Assembly: GCF_000223395.1 (NCBI RefSeq)
Contig: NC_015931.1
Coordinates: 480,001-512,000, forward strand
Source of the DNA: Pyrolobus fumarii 1A
GTDB lineage: Archaea > Thermoproteota > Thermoprotei_A > Sulfolobales > Pyrodictiaceae
DNA length: 32,000 nucleotides
Direction: 5' to 3'
Position numbers and translations under genes: made by a program
In this document: in pieces, positions 1-24,213 of the stretch
Layout: each line of letters begins with the position of its first letter
Position numbering within the stretch: position 1 is the first letter of the stretch
Notes under the pieces: model-generated
Databases searched by the model: none
What the model was told of the DNA's origin: nothing
Seen by the model: the letters and a program-made list of their open reading frames with translations, nothing else

Positions 1-541
1 CTTTCCTAGGCTTAGGTGTCCTCCCGGCTTGCTCATTCTGGTTCGCCTCGGATGCATAGCCTCTCGCGTAGAAGTAGCGCAGAGGATTTGTAATCACACG
101 ATCCTGCGCCGCTCTCGTCCTCTTGCCCATTATGAACCCCCCAGCCTTCCAAACACAGTTTTGGCTACTCTCGTCGTAGCTTAGCGTAATATTATCCCAG
201 GATGAGGATGTTAGACTACTTGCATTCATCCCCCACATAGAGGGCGTGCTTGTGTCAATGTTACACCCTTGATTGCACGTTATTTCGATGTACTCGGCTT
301 TAGCCGAGGAGTTGTAACCGTGCTCGATTCTACAGTCGCACTTTACACTTGTCTTCACGCATCTTCTAAGATCCTCAGAGTTCGCAATGTACCATGTGAT
401 TGCCGCTAGTGTGAAAGCGAGTGATCTCGCTAAAAGTGCCTCCGGCGGCGGGACGAAGATGCGAGCCGTGTTAGACGGTGTAGATGGAGCTTTTGCCGCT
501 CGTCTCGACCCGGTTGCACGCTTAACCCGCTTCTTTGCCAT
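1..541 (-). CDS. Partial ORF (N-terminal ~180 aa, continues past the left edge). Cys-rich and unassigned. It sits downstream of cas5a, where cas3'/cas8a would be expected.
   Basis: Hand translation of the minus strand: ATG at 541-539 (MAKKRVKRATGSRRAAK...), upstream in-frame stop at 565-563, frame open to base 1. Overlaps the cas5a 3' end by 20 nt. No Walker A in the visible part. Cys clusters CVKTSVKCDC and ITCNQGC. Absent from the ORF track because it has no stop in the window. Confidence 0.5.
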   Translation of the reverse strand, partial: MAKKRVKRATGSRRAAKAPSTPSNTARIFVPPPEALLARSLAFTLAAITWYIANSEDLRRCVKTSVKCDCRIEHGYNSSAKAEYIEITCNQGCNIDTSTPSMWGMNASSLTSSSWDNITLSYDESSQNCVWKAGGFIMGKRTRAAQDRVITNPLRYFYARGYASEANQNEQAGRTPKPRK

Positions 542-1451
542 GGTCCCGCACCCTGGGTATGACTATACGCGTATGCACGAGTATATACTCTATTGTAGGT
601 TCACGCTTAGAGGGAAAAACAGAGTTTAAACTCTCAACGCGATACACGCCACACTTATCCGTGTTGATTTTTACGCGCACCCAACCCGGGTATCTGGGGT
701 GTATCGCTTCGCGTAGCACATTGAATCTGGTTAAGCTTGGGTTTAGCTTACTGCAGGGTTCAGCCGAGTAGCTGCATATAAGCTCGTCCGCGTCGCGTGG
801 TACAGGCGTCTTCTCGGCCACATAGTTTCCGTAAACATTTCCAACGCATTCTCTCAACGTGAGCCAGGGTGTCACAATCTCGTTGACACCATGCTCCTCT
901 ACAAGTTGAGCCTCAAACACGGCCAGGGGATCGACAAACGACTCTTTACCGCCAAGCCGCGAGACATGCTGCAGACCCGTCTTGAGCGCGTCTATGTCCC
1001 CGTCTTCGGATGCAACCAGTACCATTACCCTACCGTGGGGTGAAATCGTGTACCCTAGCTTTATTGGCGCAAAGAGCTCGTGGACGGCGAGTTTCTGCGG
1101 GAGGTCTTCACGCCTAGTTTTGAGCGACTGATACGGGCCTGTGAAGTAGCGTATGAGTATACCGGTTCTAATGGAGGGTGAGAGCCAGGCTGCCGAAACC
1201 CACCATCTCCTACCGAGGATCTTTATTATGGATGCAGCGCCGCTAGTTAAGATCGACCCGGAGCCGATACTCGTAATTATGAACTCGCGTGTACCCAGCA
1301 ACCCGAGGTCGTGGAGGGTCTTGGCTAGCGCCCCTAGAATTGTGGTTGGCGGGGGGAGTAGGTATGAAGGTTGAGATGCGCTTCCGAACCACGCTCGGCT
1401 CGACAACCCCCAGTGGACGCGGTATACCGCAATAGCAGCTCGGAGTACCAA
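522..1451 (-). CDS. cas5a: Cas5a (type I-A Cascade RAMP subunit)
   Basis: N-terminus ...VHWGLSS...SYLLPPPTTILGALAK matches the Cas5 hallmark (HWGFS...LPPPTTLIGAL in Sulfolobus Cas5a). It lies directly downstream of cas7/csa2, as in type I-A operons. Confidence 0.85.
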   Translation of the reverse strand: MVLRAAIAVYRVHWGLSSRAWFGSASQPSYLLPPPTTILGALAKTLHDLGLLGTREFIITSIGSGSILTSGAASIIKILGRRWWVSAAWLSPSIRTGILIRYFTGPYQSLKTRREDLPQKLAVHELFAPIKLGYTISPHGRVMVLVASEDGDIDALKTGLQHVSRLGGKESFVDPLAVFEAQLVEEHGVNEIVTPWLTLRECVGNVYGNYVAEKTPVPRDADELICSYSAEPCSKLNPSLTRFNVLREAIHPRYPGWVRVKINTDKCGVYRVESLNSVFPSKREPTIEYILVHTRIVIPRVRDHGKEAG

Positions 1452-1458
1452 GACGTTT

Positions 1459-2715
1459 TCACCTGGCGGTGCACTGCAAGCCTACATTGTCTCGAATCCT
1501 CCCGATCAAGTCGGGTATGGTGTTCGTTATCTCAACACCTGGTAGCCTGCCTATCAGCTGCCTGAGCCTCTCGGCGTAGTTGCTGCCTAGGGCTGCCGTG
1601 ACATATGCTACGAGCTTCACGTCAACATTGAGCTTCTTGTAGTCGTCTAGCTTCCTCTTAAGTTCCTCCACAAGGTTCTCGAGGGGTAGTGTCGCTGGGG
1701 GTAGCGGCACCGGCCTGTCGCTCAAAACTGCTATGACAAGCTCGGTGACGTTATGCGGCCTGTACCTTGACCTCTTGGCTCCAAAATCGCCTTCGAGCAA
1801 CGGCCTAAGTGCATCCAGAGCAACGCACCTTCTCAATGTCAGCGTGCACTCTTTGTCCTCCACGCACCCCCCTGCTATGCTATAGCTCCCCACGCAACAG
1901 AGGTCAAGCTCGATGTTGCCGCCGTAGAGCACCGACCCGACCTGCACGTAGTATGGGACCTGGATGGCCTCCTCGTAGCCAGGTAGCCTCAACGACTGTG
2001 CCTTTAACGCGCCCCTAACGTGCATCTGGTGGTCAAGCTGCGTCGCCTCGATAGCGTCGAGCGTTGGTATGAGATAAGAGAAGCGTATGCAGCTAGTCCT
2101 CCTCGTGGGTCCCTGAGTGACCAGGAAACCCCCAATATCCTCCACGAGGCTATTGTCAACAATCCGCTTCTCAATATCCTGTAGGTCGCTGAGCGAGAAC
2201 CCCTCTCTCCTACCAGCATAGCGATTAGCGAGGTCACACTCCCAGCCTCTGGGCTTAGGTGCCTTGCCCTGCTCAGCCTGTTGGCACTGCTTCTGGTAGA
2301 AGCCCAGATCCCAGTGTTTGAGTAGCTCACCTTGCTCGCTCCAGTAGTCTATCCTACTGCTGCACTCGGTGTACTTTGTCTTTGCCAGCTCGACTATCTC
2401 CATCTGGTAACGGTGTGCTAGAGATTCTCCACTGACTGCAGGTACCCACCTGACCACATATTGTCCTGGAGCCCTCGGGACTATGACGGGGACAGTCCTC
2501 CTCCTCGTCACGTTCCCCACGCTTTCAACCATGTTGAGGGCGTCGACGTTCACTAGCAACCTGTAGACAATCTGAATCCACCTCAACTTGATGTTGCAAC
2601 ATGCACTTCTCTCCTCCCGGTCGTTACCAGTCTCCATACTAGACCCTCCGCCCGCCCCACCACCCTCAAGCTTCTTGAGAAGCTTCTGAAGCTCGGTCTT
2701 CTTGTTCACAGTCAC
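1459..2715 (-). CDS. cas7: Cas7 / Csa2 (type I-A Cascade backbone subunit). The start may instead be the internal ATG at 2637.
   Basis: LLVNVDALNMVESVGNVTRRRT, VSGESLAHRYQ, RRTSCIRFSYLIPTL and GDFGAKRSRYRP align with conserved Csa2 blocks that I recall from Sulfolobus Csa2 (VSGEALAHAYQ, RRTSRIKLGYMIPAL, GNFGGKRSRFLP). The N-terminus has an unusual Gly-rich linker (GGGAGGGSS). Confidence 0.9.
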   Translation of the reverse strand: MTVNKKTELQKLLKKLEGGGAGGGSSMETGNDREERSACCNIKLRWIQIVYRLLVNVDALNMVESVGNVTRRRTVPVIVPRAPGQYVVRWVPAVSGESLAHRYQMEIVELAKTKYTECSSRIDYWSEQGELLKHWDLGFYQKQCQQAEQGKAPKPRGWECDLANRYAGRREGFSLSDLQDIEKRIVDNSLVEDIGGFLVTQGPTRRTSCIRFSYLIPTLDAIEATQLDHQMHVRGALKAQSLRLPGYEEAIQVPYYVQVGSVLYGGNIELDLCCVGSYSIAGGCVEDKECTLTLRRCVALDALRPLLEGDFGAKRSRYRPHNVTELVIAVLSDRPVPLPPATLPLENLVEELKRKLDDYKKLNVDVKLVAYVTAALGSNYAERLRQLIGRLPGVEITNTIPDLIGRIRDNVGLQCTAR

Positions 2716-2721
2716 GCCCCA

Positions 2722-3084
2722 TCACCTCCCACCAGCAAGAGCTTTCACAGCAAGCTCGTGGGCGAGACGCAAAGCGTGTTCAACGCACTCTGACCTCCTG
2801 GCGTCGCTAGCAATCGCCTCGACAATCTCGACTAGGCTGTCCCACTCGTCACGCCTCCTCTCCTCAACATTCTCAATGACGCTCCTCACGCCCCTCTCAA
2901 CCTCGAACAGTGCCACCAGGAGAGAGTCTGGGCCAGAAGCCAAACCAAGCTTGTCAACAGGACCGTACCTGGCCTCCTTCACGAAAGCCTCGTGGAGAAG
3001 ACGAGCCGCCTTAGACACTCTGAAGGAGTCGACACGGGCAGATCTACACTCTTGACCCTCAACGAGGGACATGGCCATCCACAA
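2722..3084 (-). CDS. csa5: Csa5-like small subunit (Cas11 equivalent of type I-A). Likely start is ATG at 3078 or 3072.
   Basis: ~115-120 aa helical protein, first gene of the csa5-cas7-cas5a order, 6 nt upstream of cas7. The call is by position and size, not by a sequence motif. Confidence 0.55.
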   Translation of the reverse strand: MWMAMSLVEGQECRSARVDSFRVSKAARLLHEAFVKEARYGPVDKLGLASGPDSLLVALFEVERGVRSVIENVEERRRDEWDSLVEIVEAIASDARRSECVEHALRLAHELAVKALAGGR

Positions 3085-3102
3085 GTATGTGCTTATCGCA
3101 AG

Positions 3103-3110
3103 GTAAAAAC
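3103..3110 (-). promoter_or_regulatory. TATA-like box upstream of the csa5-cas7-cas5a operon
   Basis: Minus strand reads CGTTTTTACC about 25-30 nt upstream of the candidate csa5 start codons (3084/3078). The spacing fits an archaeal promoter for a (near-)leaderless transcript. Confidence 0.3.
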
Positions 3111-3567
3111 GTTAACCAGTCAAATATTTTCTAGCGCATATACACTTGCTGGCATACAACGAGCATACAAGACCGAGAGGGAGCATAAAACATCAATATG
3201 TATCGTCAAGGGTAGTTAGCATACGTACTAAGTGTCGCACTACATGTAACGATTGTAGCGATTGAAGTTATACTAACACCTGGCACTAGGGTTAGTAGGC
3301 TCTCACGCCGCAGCCACTTACAAGATGTTCAAAGCTGCTACCGTACAACCACGTTACGCCAATTACTATGACCGCGGAGGGTGACTGATATGCGCTTAGA
3401 GCCAGCATCAGGCTATACTAACTATCGTGAAGTGTTCGCCGTGGCTAGTGAACAGCGGAACCGGTAAAATTGGAATGCAGTGCGGCATCGCTGATTGCCT
3501 AGGCCTGATGGAGGATCCCGTATCTCTCGCCGTATTTATCATACTCTGTCAAGCCTCTCAAATCCGG

Positions 3568-3578
3568 TATAATTTATT
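3568..3578 (+). promoter_or_regulatory. TATA-like box upstream of the first HEPN-MNT pair
   Basis: TATAATTTATT lies ~40 nt upstream of the GTG start at 3616. A GGGTG Shine-Dalgarno-like element sits just before the start. Confidence 0.3.
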
Positions 3579-3615
3579 GGTATCCATAGCCAGTGTAGAT
3601 GCGCGATAGTAGTGG

Positions 3616-6933: not shown

Positions 6934-7665
6934 TTGGCTCGTGAGAAGTCAGTTGTTCTTGTTGTCACGCAGGGTACTAGCCCGGGTGTCGCCGCCGAGG
7001 CGTACCACAATATCGTCACGGGGAGGGCGGTAGACTATGATAACGGCGTGCTACGTGGGAGAGTCGAGAGCGTCGTGATAGTGGCTACTAGTGGCTCCAT
7101 GGCGGTGTTGGCTGCCAGGGCAGCCGCGGCTATACTCACATGCTGCATGGGCCTCGATCCTAACAGGGTCAGGCTCGTGTTCGCGCCCTGCAGTGACGTC
7201 ACGGATGCAGCCTCGTACGGCGCCTACTACGACGCTGTCTACGAGACCCTGGAGTCCGTGCTGGAAGAGTCGAAGGACAGCATCGTGGTTCTCGACGTGA
7301 CCGGTGGCCGCGTGGGCATGGCCATAGCCGCCTTCGAGGCGGTCAACGCCATGCTTACCAGGGATAGGGTGAGGGTGACGACAACCCAGGTGCCGCCAGA
7401 GAAGTACCGGGCGGTGCAAGAAGCGTTCAACGAGATGAAGGGTAGGCTCGAGGAGGCGCTCGCAAGGTTCGAGGAGAGAGTGAAGACGGGCGACGCCAAG
7501 AGAGCATGCGAGGAGCTACTCGAGGAGACACGCAGCGACAAAAACAGCCTATGCAGCCTAGTGACACGCGAGGCGATCACAGCAGCCATATGGCCGAGAC
7601 CGCCAGCACCCCCCAGGAGGAGGAAGAGAGGCGGGACTCACCCCCAACGCGATCAGAGCAGGTAA
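6934..7665 (+). CDS. CARF-domain protein (CRISPR-associated Rossmann fold) with a short helical C-terminus and no recognisable effector domain
   Basis: VVLVVTQGTSPGVAAEA and VVLDVTGGRVGMAIAAFEA match the two CARF signature blocks (compare HTLGTSPEA and LDLTSGTKAMS in Csm6). The C-terminal ~25 aa are low-complexity (PPAPPRRRKRGG) and may be a read-through tail. Confidence 0.7.
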   Translation: MAREKSVVLVVTQGTSPGVAAEAYHNIVTGRAVDYDNGVLRGRVESVVIVATSGSMAVLAARAAAAILTCCMGLDPNRVRLVFAPCSDVTDAASYGAYYDAVYETLESVLEESKDSIVVLDVTGGRVGMAIAAFEAVNAMLTRDRVRVTTTQVPPEKYRAVQEAFNEMKGRLEEALARFEERVKTGDAKRACEELLEETRSDKNSLCSLVTREAITAAIWPRPPAPPRRRKRGGTHPQRDQSR

Positions 7666-8062
7666 CAGCCTCGTGCTTACTCCGAGGTTCTTCCCTCTCG
7701 GGCCCCAAGCCACCACAATCATACACACGCTTGTCGCGGTCCTCTAGACTACCCCAGTATTTCCAGCCGCGGAGGTAGGCTGCTACGGTCTCCTCCGGCG
7801 ACTCTATGTAGTCGATGCCCTCCGGGGTCTCCAGCTCCACGAGCCTCCAAGCCTCCCCGGCGTCCAACAACGCCAAGCCTAACCGGGTCACGCGGCTTAG
7901 CCCACCGTACAAGTTGCACTCCACAGCCTCACGCTCATCCAGGCTCGGGGCGGCGGAAGCCCCTACCCCCTCCCACACCCTCCTAAGCTCCTCTAGCCTC
8001 AACCTCCTCACACCCAACCGCATGCACCCCGAGACACACCCGCCCATACTACACCCATGCAC
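7577..8062 (-). CDS. Hypothetical protein (start possibly the ATG at 8023)
   Basis: ORF only. Convergent with the CARF gene, and the two 3' ends overlap by 89 nt. The C-terminal third looks non-globular. Confidence 0.3.
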   Translation of the reverse strand: MHGCSMGGCVSGCMRLGVRRLRLEELRRVWEGVGASAAPSLDEREAVECNLYGGLSRVTRLGLALLDAGEAWRLVELETPEGIDYIESPEETVAAYLRGWKYWGSLEDRDKRVYDCGGLGPEREEPRSKHEAVTCSDRVGGESRLSSSSWGVLAVSAIWLL

Positions 8063-8101
8063 ACGGCAAAAACATGTTTACACAAAACACCCAACCAGAG
8101 C

Positions 8102-8197
8102 AACATAATTCATTCTTGGTTGTTCGCCGGTATCACCTCGCGCACGGCATCCTGCGTCACCAGCCTCGCTAGGGAACAACCAAGAATGAGTTGAAAG
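8102..8197. repeat. Orphan inverted pair of CRISPR-repeat-like sequences flanking a 47-48-nt segment
   Basis: 8102-8125, aacatAATTCATTCTTGGTTGTTC, has array orientation and a degenerate 5' end. 8173-8197, GGAACAACCAAGAATGAGTTGAAAG, is the reverse complement of the array repeat with 2 mismatches. Positions 8107-8125 can pair with 8174-8192 over 19 bp including one G-U. Confidence 0.85.
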
Positions 8198-8469
8198 TGC
8201 GTGCGACTCAGGGAAGTGGCACACAGCCCAACGTTCGACAAGTGGCTATTGGAGATTGGGCGTGTGACTGAAAGGTGAGTAAGCGGCTCTACGTGCTGGT
8301 GCTTAGCGACCCCCTCTCCTCAGAGATATACTCTCGGACGCGAGGAAAGGCGAGGTTGTGGTGAGGGACGTGGTTGTCTTCGCGGAGATGTCTCCCCAGA
8401 AGGCGGGGGCTACAGCCAGAGGGGTGCGATCATCTACAGGGTTGAGCGTTTTCGCGGCTAGCCTCGCGC

Positions 8470-8706
8470 TTACACTGCTCCTCGGCTAGACGCCTCTCTC
8501 CTCTTCCCCGCTTTCTCGAGCATCTCTAGGTATCTTTTCGCGAGCCTCGCTAGAAGCATCCGCTCTCTCTGCTCGAGCCCCGCTGCGGCCGCGAAGGGCG
8601 AGAAGAGCTCTCTCCTAACCTCGGCTATCCTGGCCTCAACCCCGTCCCTATCCAGCTGTTGGCGCGGCTGCATGCGCTTGAGGAGCTGGTCGCCGGTCAC
8701 GGGCAT
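8470..8706 (-). CDS. Small helical hypothetical protein (ORF open to 8733; the ATG at 8706 follows a GGAGAGGAG SD-like element)
   Basis: ORF plus an SD-like element. Last gene of the tandem run of small minus-strand ORFs. Confidence 0.4.
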   Translation of the reverse strand: MPVTGDQLLKRMQPRQQLDRDGVEARIAEVRRELFSPFAAAAGLEQRERMLLARLAKRYLEMLEKAGKRREASSRGAV

Positions 8707-8821
8707 ACTCCTCTCCCCTTGCGCCTTATGCACTTGAGGCGAAGCGTGTAGAGCCTCGGATTATCCGCCCTGCGGGCTCTCCATGCCCTAGATCCTACCG
8801 ATCACCTTTTATTATGTCTGC

Positions 8822-9019
8822 TTAGGTCTCTCTAGCTACTCTCTTCAACCTCTTCTCTGCCTCTTCCAGGGTTAGCCTATAGGCTATAACGTCGAGTATC
8901 ACTTGGCGGGCTTTGTGGGGTGGCACGCCAAGCCTCTTAGCCAGCCTCTCGAGCCTTGCTATCTCCTCGCCTCGCGCGTCGCGATACATGCGTACGAGCT
9001 TGTCAGCACATATAGGCAA
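8822..9019 (-). CDS. Small helical protein, possibly HTH-containing
   Basis: 65 aa. LAKRLGVPPHKARQVILDVI resembles a helix-turn-helix. The C-terminal LTLEEAEKRLKRV resembles the motif of the neighbouring paralogues. Confidence 0.45.
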   Translation of the reverse strand: MPICADKLVRMYRDARGEEIARLERLAKRLGVPPHKARQVILDVIAYRLTLEEAEKRLKRVARET

Positions 9020-9049: not shown

Positions 9050-9286
9050 TTAACACTCTGCTAGTCTCTCGAGCTTCTTTCGGGCCGTCTCGTAGCCTAT
9101 ACGCCCCTCGAAGAAATCATCGAGTATCCTTTCGGCCTCATCTCCTCTTCCCGCCGCCCTGGCTCTCCTTGCGAGTGTTAGCAGCGCGCCTATCCTTTCT
9201 CTTACCGCCCTTACCTCTCTCACGGCTCTCTCCACGGCCGGATCCGGGTGGATCCCGCGGGCCATAGGATCGGCCCAGGGTCTCAC
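9050..9286 (-). CDS. Small helical protein, paralogue family with a C-terminal F-x-E-G-R/K-I...A...L motif
   Basis: RARAAGRGDEAERILDDFFEGRIGYETARKKLERLAE aligns with 9316-9588 and 11508-11666. Confidence 0.5.
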   Translation of the reverse strand: MRPWADPMARGIHPDPAVERAVREVRAVRERIGALLTLARRARAAGRGDEAERILDDFFEGRIGYETARKKLERLAEC

Positions 9287-9315: not shown

Positions 9316-9588
9316 CTACTTCTCCCCCGCTTTCTCGATGAGCGTCCTGAGCCTCTTGATCGCCTCTTCCCGCGTGATCTTCCCCTCGACGAACCAGTCT
9401 GCGAAGACCTCGAACGCCTCGTCGAACACCCCGAGCTTATACGCCCTAGCAGCGAGACGGAGCGGCTCGTCGAGCGGCCGCCGTATCTCGTCGATCGTGA
9501 GGCGCTCCACGGGCATCTTTCTAGCCACGGCCTGGCGCATCCCGAGTGAAACCCTAACCACTCTTATAGCATGCCCGTCCATACGCAA
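9316..9588 (-). CDS. Small helical protein, same paralogue family
   Basis: AARAYKLGVFDEAFEVFADWFVEGKITREEAIKRLRTLIEKA. Confidence 0.5.
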   Translation of the reverse strand: MRMDGHAIRVVRVSLGMRQAVARKMPVERLTIDEIRRPLDEPLRLAARAYKLGVFDEAFEVFADWFVEGKITREEAIKRLRTLIEKAGEK

Positions 9589-9605: not shown

Positions 9606-9776
9606 GTGCAGCGTGCGGAGAAGATACCGTGGAGAAGGATTGTCGACTGGGTTTTCAGGGAGTATAGGTGGGAGCTTGACATCCTACGCGAGTATGACAG
9701 GAGCGGCAGGCTTCCGAGCAGAGAGGAAGTTGAGAGGCTGAAGAGCAGAGCTAGGCGTGTTGCAGCCACTCGATAA
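9606..9776 (+). CDS. Candidate 56-aa ORF, below the track threshold, convergent with doc
   Basis: Hand translation from GTG 9606: VQRAEKIPWRRIVDWVFREYRWELDILREYDRSGRLPSREEVERLKSRARRVAATR, stop at 9774-9776. The composition is protein-like, but it overlaps the doc 3' end by 26 nt. Confidence 0.25.
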   Translation: MQRAEKIPWRRIVDWVFREYRWELDILREYDRSGRLPSREEVERLKSRARRVAATR

Positions 9777-10158
9777 GATCCTCGATGCTCCACTCGCCAC
9801 GCGCGACCCGGATAGCCGCCTCGTATGCAGACGCGGGTTGCCTGACCCGATTCGCTTTGAGGAAGGCCCTTAGGAGTACAACCGCAAACCTCTTGTTACC
9901 GTCTGTCAGCGGGTGGCGCGTTATAGCCTCGTAGAATAGCGTTGCAGCGGCTATAATCTTCTTCACCCTGCACGAGCTTCTCGTGTACCGTGCTGCGTAC
10001 CTGGCGCTCTCGAGGATAGACTCTAGCGCATCAACCGAGACAACGGCTATATGGTCCCGTGGGTAGTGCCTACAAAGCTCCTCGACGATGTATAGTAGCA
10101 GGCTGACTGAAGGATAGCGTATCACGCACCGTTTTCTCCGAACCTTCTTCCTCGCCAA
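9751..10158 (-). CDS. doc: Doc/Fic-family toxin (death-on-curing type)
   Basis: HPLTDGNKRFA matches the Doc variant of the Fic motif, HxFx(D/N)(A/G)NKR. 135 aa, a typical Doc size. Confidence 0.8.
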   Translation of the reverse strand: MARKKVRRKRCVIRYPSVSLLLYIVEELCRHYPRDHIAVVSVDALESILESARYAARYTRSSCRVKKIIAAATLFYEAITRHPLTDGNKRFAVVLLRAFLKANRVRQPASAYEAAIRVARGEWSIEDLIEWLQHA

Positions 10159-10541: not shown

Positions 10542-11090
10542 CTACTTCCTTACTAGCATCAGGGGTATGACTAGGAGTGAAAGTATGCCAGCGCCGAGGG
10601 CGAGTGGCACCAGCCATGGTATTTGCTCGACAGCCGAGGCTGTGGTCACAAGCAGCTTGTAGACCGCCGGCTGGTTGACGAGTACAACGGTTGCAATGAT
10701 ACACGCGAGTATCAACGCTATTATGATCGCGATTGTGACTGCACCAAGTTGTGCTTCCTGCACATGCACGCCATAGAGGCTCCATAGCTCATCATATGTT
10801 AACCTCTTCCCTATGATAGTAGCGTCGTGACTGTACTCGCAGTAGAGGGGGTTGCACGTCTTACAGTTCACGGCGTTCGGCACGAAGATAGAGGGGTGTG
10901 CGGACAAGCCGGGGGCGGATGTCAATAAGTGCTTCGAGGTAGAGACGTGGTACAGCTGCTCTACAACCACAACCACTACAACAACCGCCACGACTACCAC
11001 AACTAGTAGCATAACAGCAACGACAAAGTCGAGCACCAGTGACACAACAATCCCGCCGCCAGCGGCGACACTACCCTGGGGGAACAACAA
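10542..11090 (-). CDS. Polytopic membrane protein with a poly-Val TM helix and a Cys-containing loop
   Basis: VVAVMLLVVVVVAVVVVVVVV, then the loop NCKTCNPLYC, then 2-3 further TM helices. Confidence 0.5.
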   Translation of the reverse strand: MLFPQGSVAAGGGIVVSLVLDFVVAVMLLVVVVVAVVVVVVVVEQLYHVSTSKHLLTSAPGLSAHPSIFVPNAVNCKTCNPLYCEYSHDATIIGKRLTYDELWSLYGVHVQEAQLGAVTIAIIIALILACIIATVVLVNQPAVYKLLVTTASAVEQIPWLVPLALGAGILSLLVIPLMLVRK

Positions 11091-11173: not shown

Positions 11174-11518
11174 TCACGCCCCGATCTCCTCGAGGCTCCT
11201 CTTCACTTCCCTCGGCAGGTGCTTCTGGATCACCGGGGCGTATAGGATCACGAGGAACGAGACCAGGAAGGCTAGGAGTAGGAGCTCACAGGCCGTCACC
11301 TCTAGGGGTTTGACGGCGCCAGTAGCCCTGTTGACCAGGTAGAGGGTCGCCACGGTCCTATCCAGCCCGCCCAGCCTGTAAGCCAGGGCGAAAGACTTCC
11401 CCACGAGGAGAGACGCGAGCATACTCTTCCTGAAGCTCCCGGTCTTCAGGTAGACAACACTCCACACGAGGAACATACCGAAGGCGAACACCACCCAGGC
11501 CAGGCTGCTAGCGTCCAC
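11174..11518 (-). CDS. Membrane protein (3-4 TM helices)
   Basis: Hydrophobic segments throughout the 114-aa ORF. Its start overlaps the upstream small ORF by 11 nt. Confidence 0.45.
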   Translation of the reverse strand: MDASSLAWVVFAFGMFLVWSVVYLKTGSFRKSMLASLLVGKSFALAYRLGGLDRTVATLYLVNRATGAVKPLEVTACELLLLAFLVSFLVILYAPVIQKHLPREVKRSLEEIGA

Positions 11519-11666
11519 CGTCTACACCCGCCAGCCTCTGGAGTCTCCTCAGGGCCTCACTCCTCTCGATCCTACCCTCTATGAAGTCCTCGAGCACCTT
11601 CTCGGCTTTCCGCCGGTCTCTAGCCCTGAGAGCCAGGCGCACCATCTCCCACGCGCGTCTCCTCAT
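11508..11666 (-). CDS. Small helical protein, third member of the F-x-E-G-R/K-I paralogue family (ORF open to 11750; ATG 11666 preferred)
   Basis: MRRRAWEMVRLALRARDRRKAEKVLEDFIEGRIERSEALRRLQRLAG. The ATG at 11666 lies just after the PIN stop at 11672. Confidence 0.5.
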   Translation of the reverse strand: MRRRAWEMVRLALRARDRRKAEKVLEDFIEGRIERSEALRRLQRLAGVDGGR

Positions 11667-11671
11667 CTCGA

Positions 11672-12112
11672 CTACCCTCGGGTTAGGCACCTCTCCCCAC
11701 CACTCCCATGGTTGATACAGCAGAGACCCAACTCTATAGCCTTGTTGCAAGCCCCCTTGTCAGAGGTTACCATGTACTCTGCGCCTATCATCTTAGCCGC
11801 AAGTATATGCGCATAGTCGAAGATGGTGTTGATGCTCGCATGGGGGCCTGCAAGGTCTCTAGCTTCGCTTAGCAAAGCCAACACCGGGACCCTGTAGATG
11901 CGGATGTCATAGCGCCTAGCGATACTCCTAGCGACAAACCCCTTTTCATACTGTCTATACTCGAAGACGAGCACCGTACTCGTGCAGATAACCCCTCTAT
12001 TACGCCTGGCGAAGCTAACCGCCTCACTCCTCTCCTCGCTAAGATCCACGAAGAAATTCGTGTTCACGTAGTACTTGCAGCGTCCCCTGCGCCTAGATCT
12101 CCTCTTCGCCAA
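11672..12112 (-). CDS. PIN-domain protein (VapC-like toxin)
   Basis: YVNTNFFVDL (first acidic residue) and ...AEYMVTSDKG (distal Asp) at the spacing typical of PIN domains. 146 aa. Its start overlaps the upstream gene by 20 nt. Confidence 0.65.
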   Translation of the reverse strand: MAKRRSRRRGRCKYYVNTNFFVDLSEERSEAVSFARRNRGVICTSTVLVFEYRQYEKGFVARSIARRYDIRIYRVPVLALLSEARDLAGPHASINTIFDYAHILAAKMIGAEYMVTSDKGACNKAIELGLCCINHGSGGERCLTRG

Positions 12113-12538: not shown

Positions 12539-12783
12539 TCTCCAATTCATTCTTGGTTGTTTCGTGGCGCTCATCGTCTCGTAGGCCTTGACTATGGTCG
12601 GCCTCGACTTCTTTCAATTCATTCTTGGTTGTTTCATATGGGGTGAGGTGTTGATATGGGGCGAAGTTGAGAATTATGCCAGAATAATCTTTCAATTCAT
12701 TCTTGGTTGTTTCTCTGCTCTCCCTCTTCTCCACCATATTCTCGATGTGCTCCTCTAGCTTTCAATTCATTCTTGGTTGTTTC
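12539..12783 (-). CRISPR. CRISPR array 1: 4 repeats and 3 spacers (47, 53, 45 nt). crRNA sense is on the minus strand.
   Basis: Repeats at 12539-12563 (degenerate: TCTCC instead of CTTTC), 12611-12635, 12689-12713 and 12759-12783. Plus-strand consensus is CTTTCAATTCATTCTTGGTTGTTTC. The minus strand reads GAAACAACCAAGAATGAATTGAAAG, ending in the ATTGAAAG tag. Confidence 0.95.
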
Positions 12784-12802
12784 GTCCTACAGTATCAGTA
12801 GG

Positions 12803-13216
12803 GTGTTTGCTGCCGCGAGGGGCATAGCCAAGGGGCTTCTCGCTGTACGGGAGGAGCGCGTCTACCGCGGGCGTAGGGTCGTGGTAACCGGCTACGACCT
12901 CGTAGAGTTGTTGACCCTCATTGCAACGGTTGCCGACCCCGAGGCTCGGAAGAGAGTAGCCGAGGCCATAGCCGACGGGAACGCCGAGGCCGCCAGGCGC
13001 GTAGAGGAGAGGATGGTTGAGTACGTGGCGTCCGTCGTGGAGTCGCCGGACCCCCTGGCCGCGCACGTGGCTCAACGCGTAAACGAGGAGTGGTACGCCA
13101 GGTTCGCGGAGTTCATCCAGGAGCCGGACTACATGCGTTTCTTGCGCCGGCGTTTTTCCCACTCGCGGCGCAGCTTCTCCTCGGCTATCCGCCTAGCCCG
13201 CTCCAGCTCACTTTGA
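12803..13216 (+). CDS. Hypothetical helical protein (start GTG 12803 or later). The track ORF start at 12707 lies inside the array and is an artefact.
   Basis: The middle part is protein-like (DPEARKRVAEAIADGNAEAARRVEERMVEYV...EEWYARFAEFIQEPDY). The 3' end overlaps the convergent membrane-protein gene by 88 nt. Confidence 0.35.
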   Translation: MFAAARGIAKGLLAVREERVYRGRRVVVTGYDLVELLTLIATVADPEARKRVAEAIADGNAEAARRVEERMVEYVASVVESPDPLAAHVAQRVNEEWYARFAEFIQEPDYMRFLRRRFSHSRRSFSSAIRLARSSSL

Positions 13217-16543: not shown

Positions 16544-16667
16544 ATGCTGCAAACCATTGTGCACTCGGGGGCGCTCCCCGCCACCCGGGGGCCTGGAGGG
16601 CGGCCACACACAGCCCAGGGAGGGGCCCAGGAGCCCACAGCGGAGCAGCCATGTTGCAAACCATGGT
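16544..16667 (+). repeat. Two copies of the ATGTTGCAAACCATGG motif (left cluster)
   Basis: 16544-16560 ATGCTGCAAACCATTGT and 16651-16667 ATGTTGCAAACCATGGT, in GC-rich non-coding DNA after the stop of the 14700-16424 gene. Confidence 0.8.
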
Positions 16668-16846
16668 ACACACATGGGGCACCTCCAGGGCCCCTCTCCC
16701 CCGCCGCCGCCCGGCGCGCACGTAGACGCGTGGACGACCCCAGACGCCGCCAGAGTAGACCCTACCATCTTCCAGCTGGAGATGATGGTGTACCAGTGCC
16801 CACCGGGGGAGGAGTCCTAGCGCCCCGCGTGCGGCTGCAGGGTGGC

Positions 16847-17293: not shown

Positions 17294-17704
17294 GAGTAGA
17301 CACCCCGAAAACCGGGCGTGGGCTGGGGGCGGCGCCCCTCTACCCCCGGAGCCCGATTAGCGCCAGGGTAAACGCGGCTAGGGCGATGCCAGCCAGGGTG
17401 AGGGTCTGTATGGCGAACTGCCCCGCGTAGACTGCTATGCGGTCAGACCCATCCACGCTCCCACCCTCCAGGGGACGGGGCCGGAGGCGCCGGTATACAC
17501 TCTTCCCCAGGGCCCTCACCGCGCGTCCTCGGGCCTCGCCGCCGAGTACTTCTCGACGAGCTCGCGTCCTCAAGGTTGGCTCCTCGTGCGGCGGTTGCCG
17601 GCGTAGACACCCGGTAGACCATCTGCCCAACTGCTCCGAACTCGCTCCCCGTGGGGGTGGCGTTGAAGGCCCCGGCTGGGGCCGCTCCCAACACCCACAC
17701 CCGC

Positions 17705-18040
17705 ATGTTGCAAACCACGGCACCCCTCCGTACCCAGGCCCCAGGTGGGCGCTGGGCAGCAACCGCGGGCAAGGGCATGTTGCAAACACCGGGGCCCCGA
17801 GACCCGCACCCCCCACGGGCCGGGGTCGCGTCAGCTGGGGCCGGAGGCCACCGGCCACGCCGCGAACCGTGGGGCGCTACCCTTCCCAGCCACACGCCGG
17901 GGGCGGAAACGGGCCAGAGCCGGGGCCTACGGGGAGACGGTGACGTTGCAAACCATGGTGCCCCTGGCTCCGTTCGCACGGGGCTTGGGGGGTGCACGAG
18001 CCCGGCTCCGGGCACCAGACCCCATGTTGCAAATCATCGT
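17705..18040 (+). repeat. Quasi-periodic cluster of the ATGTTGCAAACCATGG motif (right cluster)
   Basis: Copies start at 17705 (ATGTTGCAAACCACGG), 17777 (ATGTTGCAAACACC), ~17857 (degenerate, ACGCCGCGAACCGTGG), 17943 (ACGTTGCAAACCATGGTG) and 18024 (ATGTTGCAAATCATCGT). All are in the same orientation. Spacings are 72, 80, 86 and 81 nt. A related GTGTTGCTTGTACACGG forms the start of the 18084 ORF. Confidence 0.8.
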
Positions 18041-18083: not shown

Positions 18084-18737
18084 GTGTTGCTTGTACACGG
18101 CATGAGGAGGGGCGTGTATACCGCGGCGTTCCTGCTGCCCTACCTCCGGGGGCGTCCCCGGAGGGGCGCCTCCCCCAGGCGGATAGTCATCTGGCAGTCT
18201 AGCAGCGAGTTCATCGAGGCGCTTAGGGGGGCGCTGGAGAGGGACGGGTTCGACCCGGGGAGGGTGATGGTCGTCAACGTGTACGCGACGAGGGTTAAGG
18301 GGAGGGTGTACCGTCGACTGAGGGTCGTGCTCCTGGAGCCGGTGGCGAGGAGGGTCTACCGCCTCCTCTACCCGAGGGTCAAGCCCGTCATCTACAGGTT
18401 CCAGGGTGCGAGGATGATGCTGAGGACCGCGCTGAGGGTGACGAGGGTGAGGGGCGCGAGGCTCGAGGGGCTCCGGAGGAGGCTGCTGCGCTCGGGGCTA
18501 GCAGCCACCGACATCGACCCGGTGTGCCGGGTGCCCGGCTGCCTGGCGGCGAGGCTAGCCAGGGGGAGGAACCCCTTCCTAGCGGCCTACCACAGCTGTA
18601 TGAGGCGCTACGAGTGGCTCCCCTTCGAGGAGAGGGAGGGCTACTGCATCTACACGGCCTATGAGGAGGTGGGCGGCGACCCGCCGCACTGGGCGAGGAT
18701 GATGTACGAGAGGGTCAGGGCGAGGCTATTCGGGTGA
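18084..18737 (+). CDS. Arg-rich hypothetical protein
   Basis: 217-aa ORF, very basic (many RR/RxR). Contains CRVPGC...HSC, a possible metal-binding motif. GTGA stop/start overlap with the next gene. Confidence 0.45.
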   Translation: MLLVHGMRRGVYTAAFLLPYLRGRPRRGASPRRIVIWQSSSEFIEALRGALERDGFDPGRVMVVNVYATRVKGRVYRRLRVVLLEPVARRVYRLLYPRVKPVIYRFQGARMMLRTALRVTRVRGARLEGLRRRLLRSGLAATDIDPVCRVPGCLAARLARGRNPFLAAYHSCMRRYEWLPFEEREGYCIYTAYEEVGGDPPHWARMMYERVRARLFG

Positions 18738-19000
18738 CGGGCGTGGCGCCCTCCGACGCGGGGCTGGAGGCGAGGAGGCTCGAGGGCGAGGCTAGGGCGG
18801 CGCGCGAGAAGATACGCGCGTTCGAGGAGAGGTACGGGATGTCCTCGCGGGAGTTCCTGGGGCGGTTCCTCCGCGGCGAGCTGGGCGACGAGCAGGACTT
18901 CATCGAGTGGTGGGGTGAACTCGTCTTCCTCGAGGAGGCGGAGAGGGGGCTGGAGGAGCTGAGGAGGGCTGAGCGGGGCGGGGAAAAAGAGCGGGGCTAG
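18734..19000 (+). CDS. Small antitoxin-like helical protein
   Basis: EKIRAFEERYGMSSREFLGRFLRGELGDEQDFIEWW resembles a pattern (FE-x-KYGMSSEEF...GEL-x-D-x-DF-x-W) that I recall from small archaeal TA-associated proteins. The family was not verified. Confidence 0.45.
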   Translation: MTGVAPSDAGLEARRLEGEARAAREKIRAFEERYGMSSREFLGRFLRGELGDEQDFIEWWGELVFLEEAERGLEELRRAERGGEKERG

Positions 19001-21054: not shown

Positions 21055-22240
21055 CTTTCAATTCATTCTTGGTTGTTTCTACTATCCCCCATGCTGCAAG
21101 AAGCGCAGGATGTGTAACCTTTCAATTCATTCTTGGTTGTTTCATGGGAGTAGGAGCCGCTTCACGACCATCACCATCCTCGCTTTCAATTCATTCTTGG
21201 TTGTTTCGCACGCTACCTCACCCGGGTCACGCGCGCCACTATCACCCAGCAGGTGCTTTCAATTCATTCTTGGTTGTTTCGCGAGGCCTACGATTATGTA
21301 GTCTTTGAGTGTGAAGCTCTTGCTTTCAATTCATTCTTGGTTGTTTCGAAGTTTATTGTCATTGGTCGACATAAGTTTACACCGATTCAGCTTTCAATTC
21401 ATTCTTGGTTGTTTCACAAGTACGGGAAGGGCATCAGCGGAATTGCCAAGTACCTTCTTTCAATTCATTCTTGGTTGTTTCACGATGTCGATGTATATCA
21501 TAAATGCTTTGGCGAGTGTAACCTTTCAATTCATTCTTGGTTGTTTCATCCTTCCCGACCCTGGGCGAGGCCTTCGGCCTCCCGCCGCTACTTTCAATTC
21601 ATTCTTGGTTGTTTCTGGAGGAGGACGTGGGGAGGGAGTACGACAGGGAGTACAACCCCTTTCAATTCATTCTTGGTTGTTTCATGGGTGTTGGAACACT
21701 CGAAGAAGCTTGACGAGCTTAAACTTTCAATTCATTCTTGGTTGTTTCGTCTAGGGTATGGCGCGGCAATACAACACCAGGAGGTCTCTTTCAATTCATT
21801 CTTGGTTGTTTCTAATCTCGACTGGTCTGGGCACATTAACCCCCGATGGTATCTTTCAATTCATTCTTGGTTGTTTCCGTGTCTGGTATTGTAAGGATTG
21901 CGTACGAGAAGGGTATACTACGATTCGCAACTTTCAATTCATTCTTGGTTGTTTCACAATTACAACCCCAAGAAGCGTACAATAAAGCGGGGGGATAGCT
22001 TTCAATTCATTCTTGGTTGTTTCAGGAGGAGGTCGCGACGGTAGAGTCGCCACCGTACAACAACGTTACCTTTCAATTCATTCTTGGTTGTTTCCTGGGT
22101 CACCGCCTTCGGCGCAGACCCAGCGATTCTAGACGAGATCATCAACGCTTTCAATTCATTCTTGGTTGTTTCATGCGCTAGATCTAGCATTGCAATAGTA
22201 TATGCAATGAGCATCCTTTCAATTCATTCTTGGTTGTTTC
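21055..22240 (-). CRISPR. CRISPR array 2: 18 identical 25-nt repeats and 17 spacers of 39-53 nt. crRNA sense is on the minus strand, with the leader on the right.
   Basis: Repeat CTTTCAATTCATTCTTGGTTGTTTC starts at 21055, 21119, 21183, 21256, 21323, 21391, 21457, 21523, 21591, 21659, 21724, 21788, 21853, 21931, 21999, 22070, 22148 and 22216. The reverse complement ends in ATTGAAAG, the 8-nt crRNA 5' tag known from Sulfolobus and Pyrococcus. Confidence 0.97.
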
Positions 22241-22500
22241 TGCATTCTTGCCGTGTGGTTATAGGCTCTTCCCCATATTTATCTCTGCCTGTCTTGCCTT
22301 TGTTGGCGTGGCTGGGGAGGGGTAATGGGCTTCAACGGTGCCCTTGCGGGACGGTCCAGGGGTAGTACCGGGTTTATAAACGGGGCAAGGGTTAAATGCG
22401 GGTTCCCTGCGGTTAGGATGGTCTCGCTACCGCCGATAGTCCCGTGGGTGACGGTCCACAGGTAGTACCGGGGATTAAAAGGATTACGCTGAGGGGTAGA
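22241..22500 (-). promoter_or_regulatory. CRISPR leader with a tandem ~31-40-nt direct repeat carrying TATA-like boxes
   Basis: AT-richer non-coding DNA abutting repeat 18. 22350-22380 (GACGGTCCAGGGGTAGTACCGGGTTTATAAA) and 22450-22480 (GACGGTCCACAGGTAGTACCGGGGATTAAAA) match at 25/31 positions and lie exactly 100 nt apart. Confidence 0.6.
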
Positions 22501-22611
22501 AAAGGTTTTCGCGGGATGTGGTTTTGTAGTTGGTGTTGTGTTGGGTTGTTGTGTTGGTGTTGTATCGTGTTCTTATGGTAGTCTGGTGGTTGTTGTGTTG
22601 GGTGTCTTGTT

Positions 22612-24213
22612 GTGCGTGGTTGGGTTGTTCTTCCTCTGGTGTTGTTGATTGTTGTTCTGTTTGGCTGTGTTGTTGCGGGTGCTTCGCTTGTCATTGATGT
22701 GTTGGACTCTTATGTTGGGCTTTGGGATGTTAGTGGTGAGCCGCCGACGGTTATGGTTGCCGGTGTGGCTAGTGTGACCGATTATTACTATGGTGGTGGG
22801 GTGTTGGGGTGGAAGTCGGGTCCTCTGGACCTCTACGATCATATCGTTCTCGTGATTGGACCGTTTCACGAGTATGTTGCCTACGCGTGGGTGGAGGTAA
22901 GGCTGGATTATGGTACTGGCGTCTTTTTCATAGACGAGTTTAACGATGATGATCTTGCGACGTCGGGCGGCTCCCACACGGTCTACAACACGTTGTACTC
23001 GCTGTTTGGCGACCCTAGGGTTGCTTACACGCCCGGCGAGGCTATAGACACGCCGGAGGAGCTAGGCTTCCGCGTCTACTGCGACCGCGATATCGTCAAC
23101 AACGCGCCCTACTGTTTCATCATAACCGGGTTCGCGCCAGCACTCTACGTAAGCACACCCGGTGTGCACGTGCTGTTCGCGAGAGTCTACGCCTGTATGT
23201 GGGACTGGCAGAGGCAGGTGATAACACGTTGCGTGTACGACACCATGACGTACACGTTCACCGTGAGGACGACGCTGCTCGACTGGCGCACCACCATAGA
23301 CCAGCTGGTCTCCTTCCTACTGCTCAACATGACTTCCACCCTCGGCAGGATAGAGGCTAGCGTCTCAACCCTAGGCAGGATGGCAAGCAGCATGAGGAAC
23401 ACGCTAGAGGCTGTAAGGACTAGCGTTGACCTCCTCGACGCGAAGCTTGATATGCTAGAGAGTGGCGTTGAGGCGGGGCTAGCCAGGCTCGAGAGGAGCA
23501 TAACGCTGGTCGTGTACAACGCCACTGGTAGGCTAGAGGGCGAGGTTGCGAGGATAACAATGAGGATAGAGGGGCTTAGCAGCGAGGTGAGCAGGGCAGC
23601 CACCGAGATACAGCGGAGGGTTAACGAGCTGGCAGAGACGCTGGCATCTCACGACCGCAACCTGACCATGATAGCCGAGGAGGTGACGCGTAGCCTAGAG
23701 GGCCTAGAGGTCTCCATGAACGCGACTAGAGAGGAGGTTAGACTAGTTGCCAGAAACGCCACCCTCCTAACCCTCGAGGTGGAGATTGTAAAGGACAAGC
23801 TAGACACGCTGGCAGACAACATAGTCGAGACGCTAGCCGCCATCGACAGGCTAAGATACGAGATGAGCATGCAGGGGACAGAACTCCAAGGCACGGTCAA
23901 CAACTTGAAGAGCACGGTAGCGAACAGCACGGCCAGACTAGAGACCCTCATGCGAGAGACGCGCAAAGCACTATCAAGCAGGATAGAAGAGCTAAACCAC
24001 ACGCTAATAACGAGCCTCGAGAGGCTAGCAGAGAAGCTAACCGAGAGCATAACAAGACAAGCAGCCACAACGAACAGGACCATAGCCGAGCTACAGGAAC
24101 GCCTAGAGAACGTCTCCCATGAACTCGGAGCAATGTACATACAGCAAGCCGCGACCCTAACCGGCGCAATAGCGGCATCCGCCACAGCAATACTCCTAGC
24201 GCGAAGAAGATAA
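22612..24213 (+). CDS. Surface coiled-coil protein with N-terminal and C-terminal TM anchors
   Basis: N-terminal TM (VVLPLVLLIVVLFGCVVAG), a ~210-aa globular domain, then ~290 aa of heptad-like sequence with 9 N-x-S/T sequons, then a C-terminal TM (LTGAIAASATAILLARRR). Confidence 0.65.
   Translation: MRGWVVLPLVLLIVVLFGCVVAGASLVIDVLDSYVGLWDVSGEPPTVMVAGVASVTDYYYGGGVLGWKSGPLDLYDHIVLVIGPFHEYVAYAWVEVRLDYGTGVFFIDEFNDDDLATSGGSHTVYNTLYSLFGDPRVAYTPGEAIDTPEELGFRVYCDRDIVNNAPYCFIITGFAPALYVSTPGVHVLFARVYACMWDWQRQVITRCVYDTMTYTFTVRTTLLDWRTTIDQLVSFLLLNMTSTLGRIEASVSTLGRMASSMRNTLEAVRTSVDLLDAKLDMLESGVEAGLARLERSITLVVYNATGRLEGEVARITMRIEGLSSEVSRAATEIQRRVNELAETLASHDRNLTMIAEEVTRSLEGLEVSMNATREEVRLVARNATLLTLEVEIVKDKLDTLADNIVETLAAIDRLRYEMSMQGTELQGTVNNLKSTVANSTARLETLMRETRKALSSRIEELNHTLITSLERLAEKLTESITRQAATTNRTIAELQERLENVSHELGAMYIQQAATLTGAIAASATAILLARRR

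Follow-up and report, generated by a model that had tools for sequence, protein, structure and literature searches.

The DNA analysed here, referred to as the window, is a 32-kb stretch of the genome of Pyrolobus fumarii 1A, which measures 1,843,267 bp (PMC3156397). At the left end of the window, on the minus strand, lies a type I-A effector module (522-3084) with cas7/Csa2, cas5a and a possible csa5, and the operon continues past that end with cas8a, cas3 and a cas3 HD gene. Between about 3.6 and 12.5 kb there is an island of toxin-antitoxin and defence-type genes comprising two HEPN/nucleotidyltransferase pairs, a Doc toxin, a weak PIN-domain match, small paralogous ORFs and a Crn1-like CARF gene. 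The window also holds two CRISPR arrays, with 21 exact copies and one degenerate terminal copy of a single repeat. On the plus strand this repeat reads CTTTCAATTCATTCTTGGTTGTTTC, and the crRNA sense (GAAAC...ATTGAAAG) of both arrays is therefore on the minus strand. The arrays are as follows.

12539-12783, minus strand: array 1, four repeats, the terminal one degenerate at its tag end (TCTCC as against CTTTC); no leader.
21055-22240, minus strand: array 2, eighteen identical repeats, with a typical leader at 22241-22520.

The first repeat of array 1 is abutted by GC-rich coding-like DNA (12784-13216) and, because it has no leader, array 1 looks like a detached array fragment. Table 3 of the published P. 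fumarii genome statistics lists 'CRISPR repeats 0' (PMC3156397), as against the two arrays and 22 repeats found in the 32-kb window alone. P. fumarii has been reported to carry three other repeat types (PMC3597662).

Several further features of the window were recorded. A 243-aa protein encoded on the plus strand (6934-7665) has no Pfam match but matches the NCBIfam Crn1 ring-nuclease model (E 7e-18, short of the curated cutoff), which points to a divergent CARF ring nuclease and, by extension, to a type III system in another part of the genome. Four small paralogous minus-strand ORFs of 65-90 aa (8822-9019, 9050-9286, 9316-9588 and 11508-11750) share a C-terminal motif approximating to F.EGRI..EEA.KRL..L and are interleaved with the Doc toxin (9751-10158) and an ORF with the weak PIN match (11672-12112; E 0.003, below the Pfam cutoff). 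They belong to no Pfam or PHROG family and are possibly an antitoxin family. At 18084-19000 on the plus strand an 88-aa ORF shares 4 bases with the end of a 217-aa ORF and has a weak NCBIfam match to the TumA antitoxin (E 3e-7, below cutoff); the two may constitute a further toxin-antitoxin pair beside the array 2 trailer. A 24-nt motif around CATGTTGCAAACCATGG is present in four copies (16649-16672, 17703-17726, 17775-17798 and 17941-17964) in a region of 70% GC where ORFs overlap on both strands. Short tandem repeats rich in GT (TGGTGTTGTGTTGG...) occupy 22519-22667, between the array 2 leader and an ORF at 22612-24213, and an ACAACC tandem repeat at 10961-11003 encodes a Thr-rich or hydrophobic low-complexity stretch.

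Within the island, the intergenic region 8018-8469 provides about 450 nt of non-coding DNA in which the only ORFs are of 43-48 aa and of no known family. An inverted-repeat finder identified in this region two 19-nt arms, at 8107-8125 and 8174-8192, that are 18/19 (95%) complementary and 48 nt apart, both of them copies of the CRISPR repeat found in the window arrays. The features of the pair are listed here.

8107-8125, minus strand: left arm, a partial repeat (positions 6-24) in array orientation, reading GAACAACCAAGAATGAATT in the minus-strand sense; without the tag end.
8126-8173, no strand assigned: inter-arm segment (loop), 48 nt, of spacer length, 67-69% GC.
8173-8197, plus strand: R1, a near-complete repeat with the tag GTTGAAAG (7/8), whose arm at 8174-8192 pairs with the left arm.

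An earlier note on this DNA had described a facing pair of repeat-like sequences separated by a length within the spacer range and lying 4.3 kb from the nearest array, with a nearly complete right copy in crRNA sense on the plus strand, opposite to both arrays, and a left copy in array orientation that had lost its tag end. The measurements agree with this description throughout. R1 matches the repeat at 23/25 positions (two mismatches); the match is on the minus strand, so that R1 reads GGAACAACCAAGAATGAGTTGAAAG in crRNA sense on the plus strand, and shuffled controls give an expectation of 0 matches of this type at three mismatches or fewer. The left copy, in the 25-nt frame 8102-8126, matches 18/25 ungapped, with an exact 18-nt core (repeat positions 6-23) and all five positions of the tag end replaced (AACAT versus CTTTC). 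The gap between the two 25-nt repeat frames is 46 nt, genuine spacers in the window arrays measuring 39-53 nt, and the pair is 4342 nt from array 1. Both inverted copies have C at repeat position 24, where 22/22 array copies have T. This is most simply explained by descent of the two from one variant repeat, and thus from a common source, with no need for selection for pairing. The inter-arm segment (8126-8173) has no significant match in any comparison made. No protein similarity to anything compared was found for 8198-8469, a tblastx comparison of 8040-8480 with the window and relatives gave no coding remnant, and the element has no Rfam family match.

In RNA the two arms would form a 19-bp stem whose sole non-Watson-Crick position is a G-U pair in the plus-strand transcript and an A-C mismatch in the minus-strand transcript. 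The predicted plus-strand fold at 37 C has a free energy of -43 kcal/mol, far better than shuffled sequences (z -3.6), and that of the minus strand is unexceptional (z -1.4). The stem is 32% GC with a predicted melting point near 95-100 C, and the mid-stem pairing probability calculated with ViennaRNA parameters is 0.88 at 90 C, 0.23 at 100 C and 0.04 at 106 C, values for which the free-energy parameters are a rough extrapolation at 106 C and which proteins or polyamines, being able to stabilise RNA, could shift. P. fumarii grows between 90 and 113 C with an optimum of 106 C (PMC3156397), and within the roughness of this extrapolation a naked hairpin at 32% GC is not like the structure that would be expected under selection in this organism.

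These data bear on the proposal that the hairpin or anti-repeat is functional as RNA, which we consider improbable. Such an RNA might titrate Cas6 or Cascade as a decoy, might act in trans as an anti-repeat on the pre-crRNA and so modulate its processing, or might, on the minus strand, stabilise the 3' end of transcripts from the upstream small-ORF operon or terminate them. The strength of the plus-strand fold is consistent with a role of this kind, as are the complementarity of the left arm to 18-19 nt of every array repeat transcript and the presence on the minus strand of T4 and T5 runs, which start 15-30 nt past the stem and fall within 15-58 nt of it. However, common descent of the two arms accounts for their pairing at no extra cost, and a stem predicted to be mostly open at 100-106 C argues against the proposal and weakens its decoy form. 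The minus-strand fold does not stand out from shuffles, and a terminator scan of 7900-8800 returned nothing, no GC-rich stem being followed directly by a T run. Moreover the known RNA decoys (Racrs) are viral and the island is without viral or mobile-element signal. A more particular proposal makes use of the predicted melting behaviour: on a plus-strand transcript the anti-repeat and repeat would form a thermosensitive duplex in cis that hides the Cas6 site of the R1 plus S1 guide near 90 C and frees it near 100-106 C, or the anti-repeat would pair in trans with the pre-crRNA. We hold this to be very doubtful. To our knowledge no archaeon has been described in which a class 1 CRISPR system is under the control of an RNA thermoswitch or of a tracr-like modulator.

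On the plus strand upstream of the hairpin there is a single TATA-like hexamer, TTTACA at 8077-8082, about 27 nt before the stem base. It is overlapped by one further feature.

8070-8082, no strand assigned: putative AT-rich palindrome AAACATGTTT, as read from the sequence.

As a candidate promoter element TTTACA is suggestive but weak. The element gave no match to a bacterial-type promoter, no strong promoter was found, and the DNA upstream has no significant similarity to a leader. The 10-mer CACACGGCAA at 8060-8069 recurs at 22251-22260 in the array 2 leader, 7 nt before the first repeat and in the matching sense orientation. It was considered as a leader relic and set aside, the similarity not being significant in a local-alignment test.

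The DNA downstream of R1 carries a second set of repeat-derived signals. The pentamer GAAAG occurs 10 times on the plus strand of the 32-kb window, and three of these occurrences end at 8197, 8274 and 8349, that is, at the end of R1 and then after 77 and a further 75 nt, the period of the arrays being 64-78 nt. Given R1, the probability of two further tags at array spacing is 1.6e-4 by mononucleotide shuffle and 2.8e-4 by dinucleotide shuffle, both values being somewhat optimistic because the periodicity was spotted by eye ahead of testing. The segments so delimited are given below.

8198-8249, plus strand: S1, a 52-nt spacer-like segment after R1.
8250-8274, plus strand: psiR2, a decayed repeat of which the tag ACTGAAAG alone is kept (7/8 to ATTGAAAG), ending 77 nt past the end of R1.
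8275-8324, plus strand: S2, a 50-nt spacer-like segment.
8325-8349, plus strand: psiR3, a decayed repeat (13/25) with the tag GAGGAAAG, ending 75 nt past the end of psiR2.

The 8-nt tags of R1, psiR2 and psiR3 are thus GTTGAAAG, ACTGAAAG and GAGGAAAG respectively. Similarity to the repeat in the bodies is at background level (9/25 in psiR2, 13/25 in psiR3), and psiR2, which lies 52 nt downstream of R1 in the same orientation, is significant only as part of the GAAAG chain. No further relic repeats of at least 16/25 were found in the window outside the arrays and the inverted-pair site. R1, psiR2 and psiR3 together look like the trailer end of a plus-sense array, because comparable decay is seen in a related Pyrodictiaceae metagenome-assembled genome (MAG; L168, Cas7 58% identical), where a genuine array with a leader has trailer repeats matching at 25, 24, 20 and 17 of 25 positions with GAAAG kept. 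The right copy can hence no longer be called an orphan, as it had been, two decayed repeat units coming after it; likewise the description of 8198-8469 as non-coding holds, apart from the tiny ORFs, but the region is not featureless, the periodic GAAAG tags having been overlooked. In a metagenomic relative (L166, Cas7 65% identical) positions 1-345, upstream of csa5, contain a leader-type motif CCGTACTACC together with repeat-like units in decay at about 84, 154 and 225, and so provide a further case of a decayed array adjoining a type I-A operon.

The DNA on the other side of the pair has been rearranged.

7577-8017, minus strand: deletion-fusion pseudogene, called as a 146-aa ORF, from comparison with related MAGs.

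Two genes contributed to it: window positions 7831-8033 match the N-terminal portion of one with 88 aa, and 7730-7848 match codons 108-146 of the other, which has 205 aa and is nucleotidyltransferase-like. In related MAGs both genes are intact and adjacent, next to thyX in a housekeeping context, and about 360 nt present between these gene parts in the relatives are missing from the window. Homology to the relatives ends near 8040, about 65 nt ahead of the left arm. An origin of the element from a mobile element or MITE was considered and rejected: there are no target-site duplications at the element, no PHROG matches among ten island ORFs tested, no integrase family among the Pfam matches of 30 window ORFs scanned, and no match to phage or plasmid DNA, nor was a tRNA found.

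Comparison with other sequences was limited by the rarity of the repeat. Logan contigs L001 and L034-L036 are identical to the window, L001 extending it by 4 kb of the cas operon. The repeat or the pair was found in no other public sequence beyond the source strain, which reflects an absence of comparators and is not a demonstrated loss of conservation. A search of genome contigs with Cas7 gave no match, the closest Cas7 found being 72% identical. The repeat core gave only single chance matches in bacteria among genome contigs and chance matches among metagenome and viral contigs, and the inverted pair had 0 matches in the metagenome data. The type I-A loci of relatives (L164-L168) have related but different repeats and no inverted solitary copy, and a literature search with the repeat sequence returned no paper.

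The guides of CreA and CreR recognise their promoter targets by a seed (nucleotides 1-5 and 7-11) that pairs with a site flanked by a PAM, the promoter being in most cases an adjacent one or that of the cas operon (PMC8501985). These 10 seed positions together with a PAM-flanked site were taken as the criterion in a search with the loop in both orientations, the sequence after each copy, and S1 (seed TGCGT.CGACT), S2 and S3, using k-mers and seed-with-PAM scans against the 32-kb window and the extra 4 kb of L001. For the loop, S1, S2 and S3 there was no 10/10 seed match with any PAM in the window or L001 except to self, and 9/10 matches occurred at chance frequency without CCN. Local alignment of the pseudo-spacers to six candidate promoter regions, including the cas promoter (3085-3615), gave nothing significant. 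An 11-mer of the loop that matches 8542-8552 (z 2.7 in 24 tests) was taken as chance. Partial complementarity to promoters, above all those of cas genes, had been anticipated in the earlier note; none above chance was present in the window, the cas promoter or L001. Its suggestion of a CreA-like regulator fares no better, there being no seed match with a PAM in the same DNA and CreA repeats being direct and not inverted (PMC8501985).

A related possibility, to which we give some weight while thinking it unlikely, is that R1 is a functional standalone mini-array or single repeat unit. Cas6 would cut a plus-strand transcript within R1 to give a cr-like RNA with the 5' handle GTTGAAAG and S1 (8198 onward) as the guide, psiR2 being the degenerate distal repeat; by partial complementarity this RNA would then guide the type I-A Cascade, or else a type III complex, to a cas or toxin promoter and bring about its repression, in the manner of CreR, CreA and crlRNAs. 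The anatomy is consistent with this: 5.4 kb upstream of the I-A cas7 operon, intergenic DNA contains a repeat of 23/25 with a 7/8 tag; a degenerate distal repeat, its tag also 7/8, follows 52 nt further on, and TTTACA stands about 27 nt ahead of the stem. Mini-arrays with a degenerate distal repeat have been reported for approximately 10% of archaeal I-A loci (bioRxiv 10.1101/2023.03.03.530964) and forms of CreA with one handle exist (PMC8501985). Set against this are the outcome of the target search, in which no cas promoter site was found, the lack of a strong promoter or leader similarity, and the upstream anti-repeat itself, which if folded would mask the Cas6 site.

At the level of DNA, the inverted copies could bind the CRISPR repeat-binding protein Cbp2 and so affect local transcription or recombination. 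Cbp2 binds double-stranded CRISPR repeats specifically and P. fumarii encodes it as Pfum-1392 (PMC3597662), and both copies are intergenic and next to the candidate promoter. Nevertheless Cbp2 would bind any repeat copy, functional or not, no regulated gene is evident and the downstream gene is a pseudogene; we rate such a site as having very little probability.

On balance we lean, by a modest degree, towards the element being the remnant of a former plus-sense array joined by rearrangement to an inverted truncated repeat, with no dedicated function. What kind of events took place, and in which order, is inferred, and so is the lack of function. A plus-sense array would once have stood at the site, of which R1, as the last good repeat, and the two decayed trailer units ending at 8274 and 8349 remain. 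An inversion plus a deletion, or a template switch, would have cost that array its leader-proximal part and put in its place a reversed, partial copy of the same repeat variant (8107-8125), this left copy being cut off at the junction with unrelated DNA. A head-to-head pair separated by one spacer is beyond the reach of simple inverted-repeat recombination; the minimum would be either a template switch or an inversion that broke within spacers and was followed by a deletion. The array from which both copies came would have had the repeat GGAACAACC..., or else one with G at sense position 18. The 19-bp stem would be an unselected by-product of the rearrangement, since two opposite copies of one repeat pair automatically.

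Of the origins put forward in the earlier note, the scar of an array inversion or recombination is the one favoured by the decayed three-unit plus-sense remnant, the truncated left copy, the shared variant and the rearranged neighbourhood. The left copy passes from 18/18 identity in the core to 0/5 beyond it, which is the pattern of a breakpoint and not of uniform decay. The nearby pseudogene and the leaderless array 1 also point to rearrangement, and further evidence in favour comes from the absence of a target in the window, cas promoter and L001, the weak stem and the absence of an Rfam match. Some observations count against an array remnant. R1 (23/25) and the left core (18/18) are almost intact whereas psiR2 and psiR3 are near background, a disparity that calls for the event to be recent or for the pair to have been preserved; a genome that is compact (87.7% coding) has kept about 450 nt of non-coding DNA here; the distance between the arms is exactly that of array units; and the TATA-like TTTACA lies at some 27 nt upstream of the stem base.

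The element does not have the make-up of a canonical array, defined by at least three near-identical direct repeats with a regular period and a leader, since it has one good plus-strand repeat, two units reduced to their tags, an inverted partner and no leader similarity. It fits the known class of standalone repeat-like sequences and mini-arrays that occur in CRISPR-cas loci, defined by intergenic sequence outside the arrays that matches the repeat of the same locus over 16 bp or more, R1 (23/25) and the 18-nt core of the left copy both being of this kind. The sequences described by Shmakov et al. (2023; bioRxiv 10.1101/2023.03.03.530964) likewise have more than 16 matching bases and lie out of array in the intergenic DNA of a CRISPR-cas island, and in their mini-arrays a second, degenerate, distal repeat-like unit stands at spacer distance (20-60 bp) and has the orientation of the first. 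These authors proposed that standalone repeats arise by array truncation or recombination, as is argued here for the inverted pair. The present case differs in that the well-preserved partner of R1 is inverted and not direct, and whereas the mini-arrays of Shmakov et al. were called regulatory from conservation and a promoter target, no promoter target is present here in the window and L001. An ordinary degenerate trailer, such as that of L168, shares the progressive decay of units at the array period and the retention of the 3' GAAAG. The element departs from it in having neither a leader nor upstream intact repeats and in having an inverted truncated repeat where the next unit belongs.

The CreTA and CreR elements (PMC8501985; PMC9458426; bioRxiv 10.1101/2023.03.10.532045) are also ectopic repeat-derived sequences near type I cas genes in which the 8-nt 5' handle is the best preserved part, one-handle forms included, and R1 would supply such a handle, GTTGAAAG (7/8), ahead of S1, the other well-preserved copy being inverted. 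In contrast to these elements, the present one has no seed and PAM match to an adjacent or cas promoter, and its repeats are inverted; where CreTA has the adjacent toxic small RNA creT with its mini-ORF of rare codons, no toxin is identifiable among the 43-48-aa ORFs of 8018-8469; it is not a demonstrable member of the CreTA group. The cases that have been described belong to types I-B, I-E and V-A (bioRxiv 10.1101/2023.03.10.532045), and 'I-A' does not occur in the CreA paper (PMC8501985). Like the anti-repeats of tracrRNAs in types II and V and the viral Racrs (PMC10651486), the element contains, outside an array, sequence complementary to or mimicking the repeat. Complementarity to the array repeats is indeed present; however, the host is an archaeon with class 1 systems, and the only CRISPR-related genes in the window are the type I-A module and the Crn1-like CARF gene, no type II or V effector accompanying them. 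It also differs from a Racr in that no virus or mobile element carries it, as judged from the PHROG (ten ORFs), integrase (30 ORFs) and phage or plasmid comparisons.

A functional element would bring cr-like regulation to type I-A, and to an archaeon growing at 106 C, and would add an anti-repeat feature new to class 1, although no finding here supports function yet. If it is a remnant, it provides a clean example of the break-up of an array leaving ectopic repeats behind, and a warning that repeat-derived hairpins can form without selection. Ectopic repeats are the raw material from which regulatory mini-CRISPRs such as CreA, CreR and crlRNAs are thought to arise, and the P. fumarii element may be material of that sort for a cr-like regulator, or else an unproven example of one.
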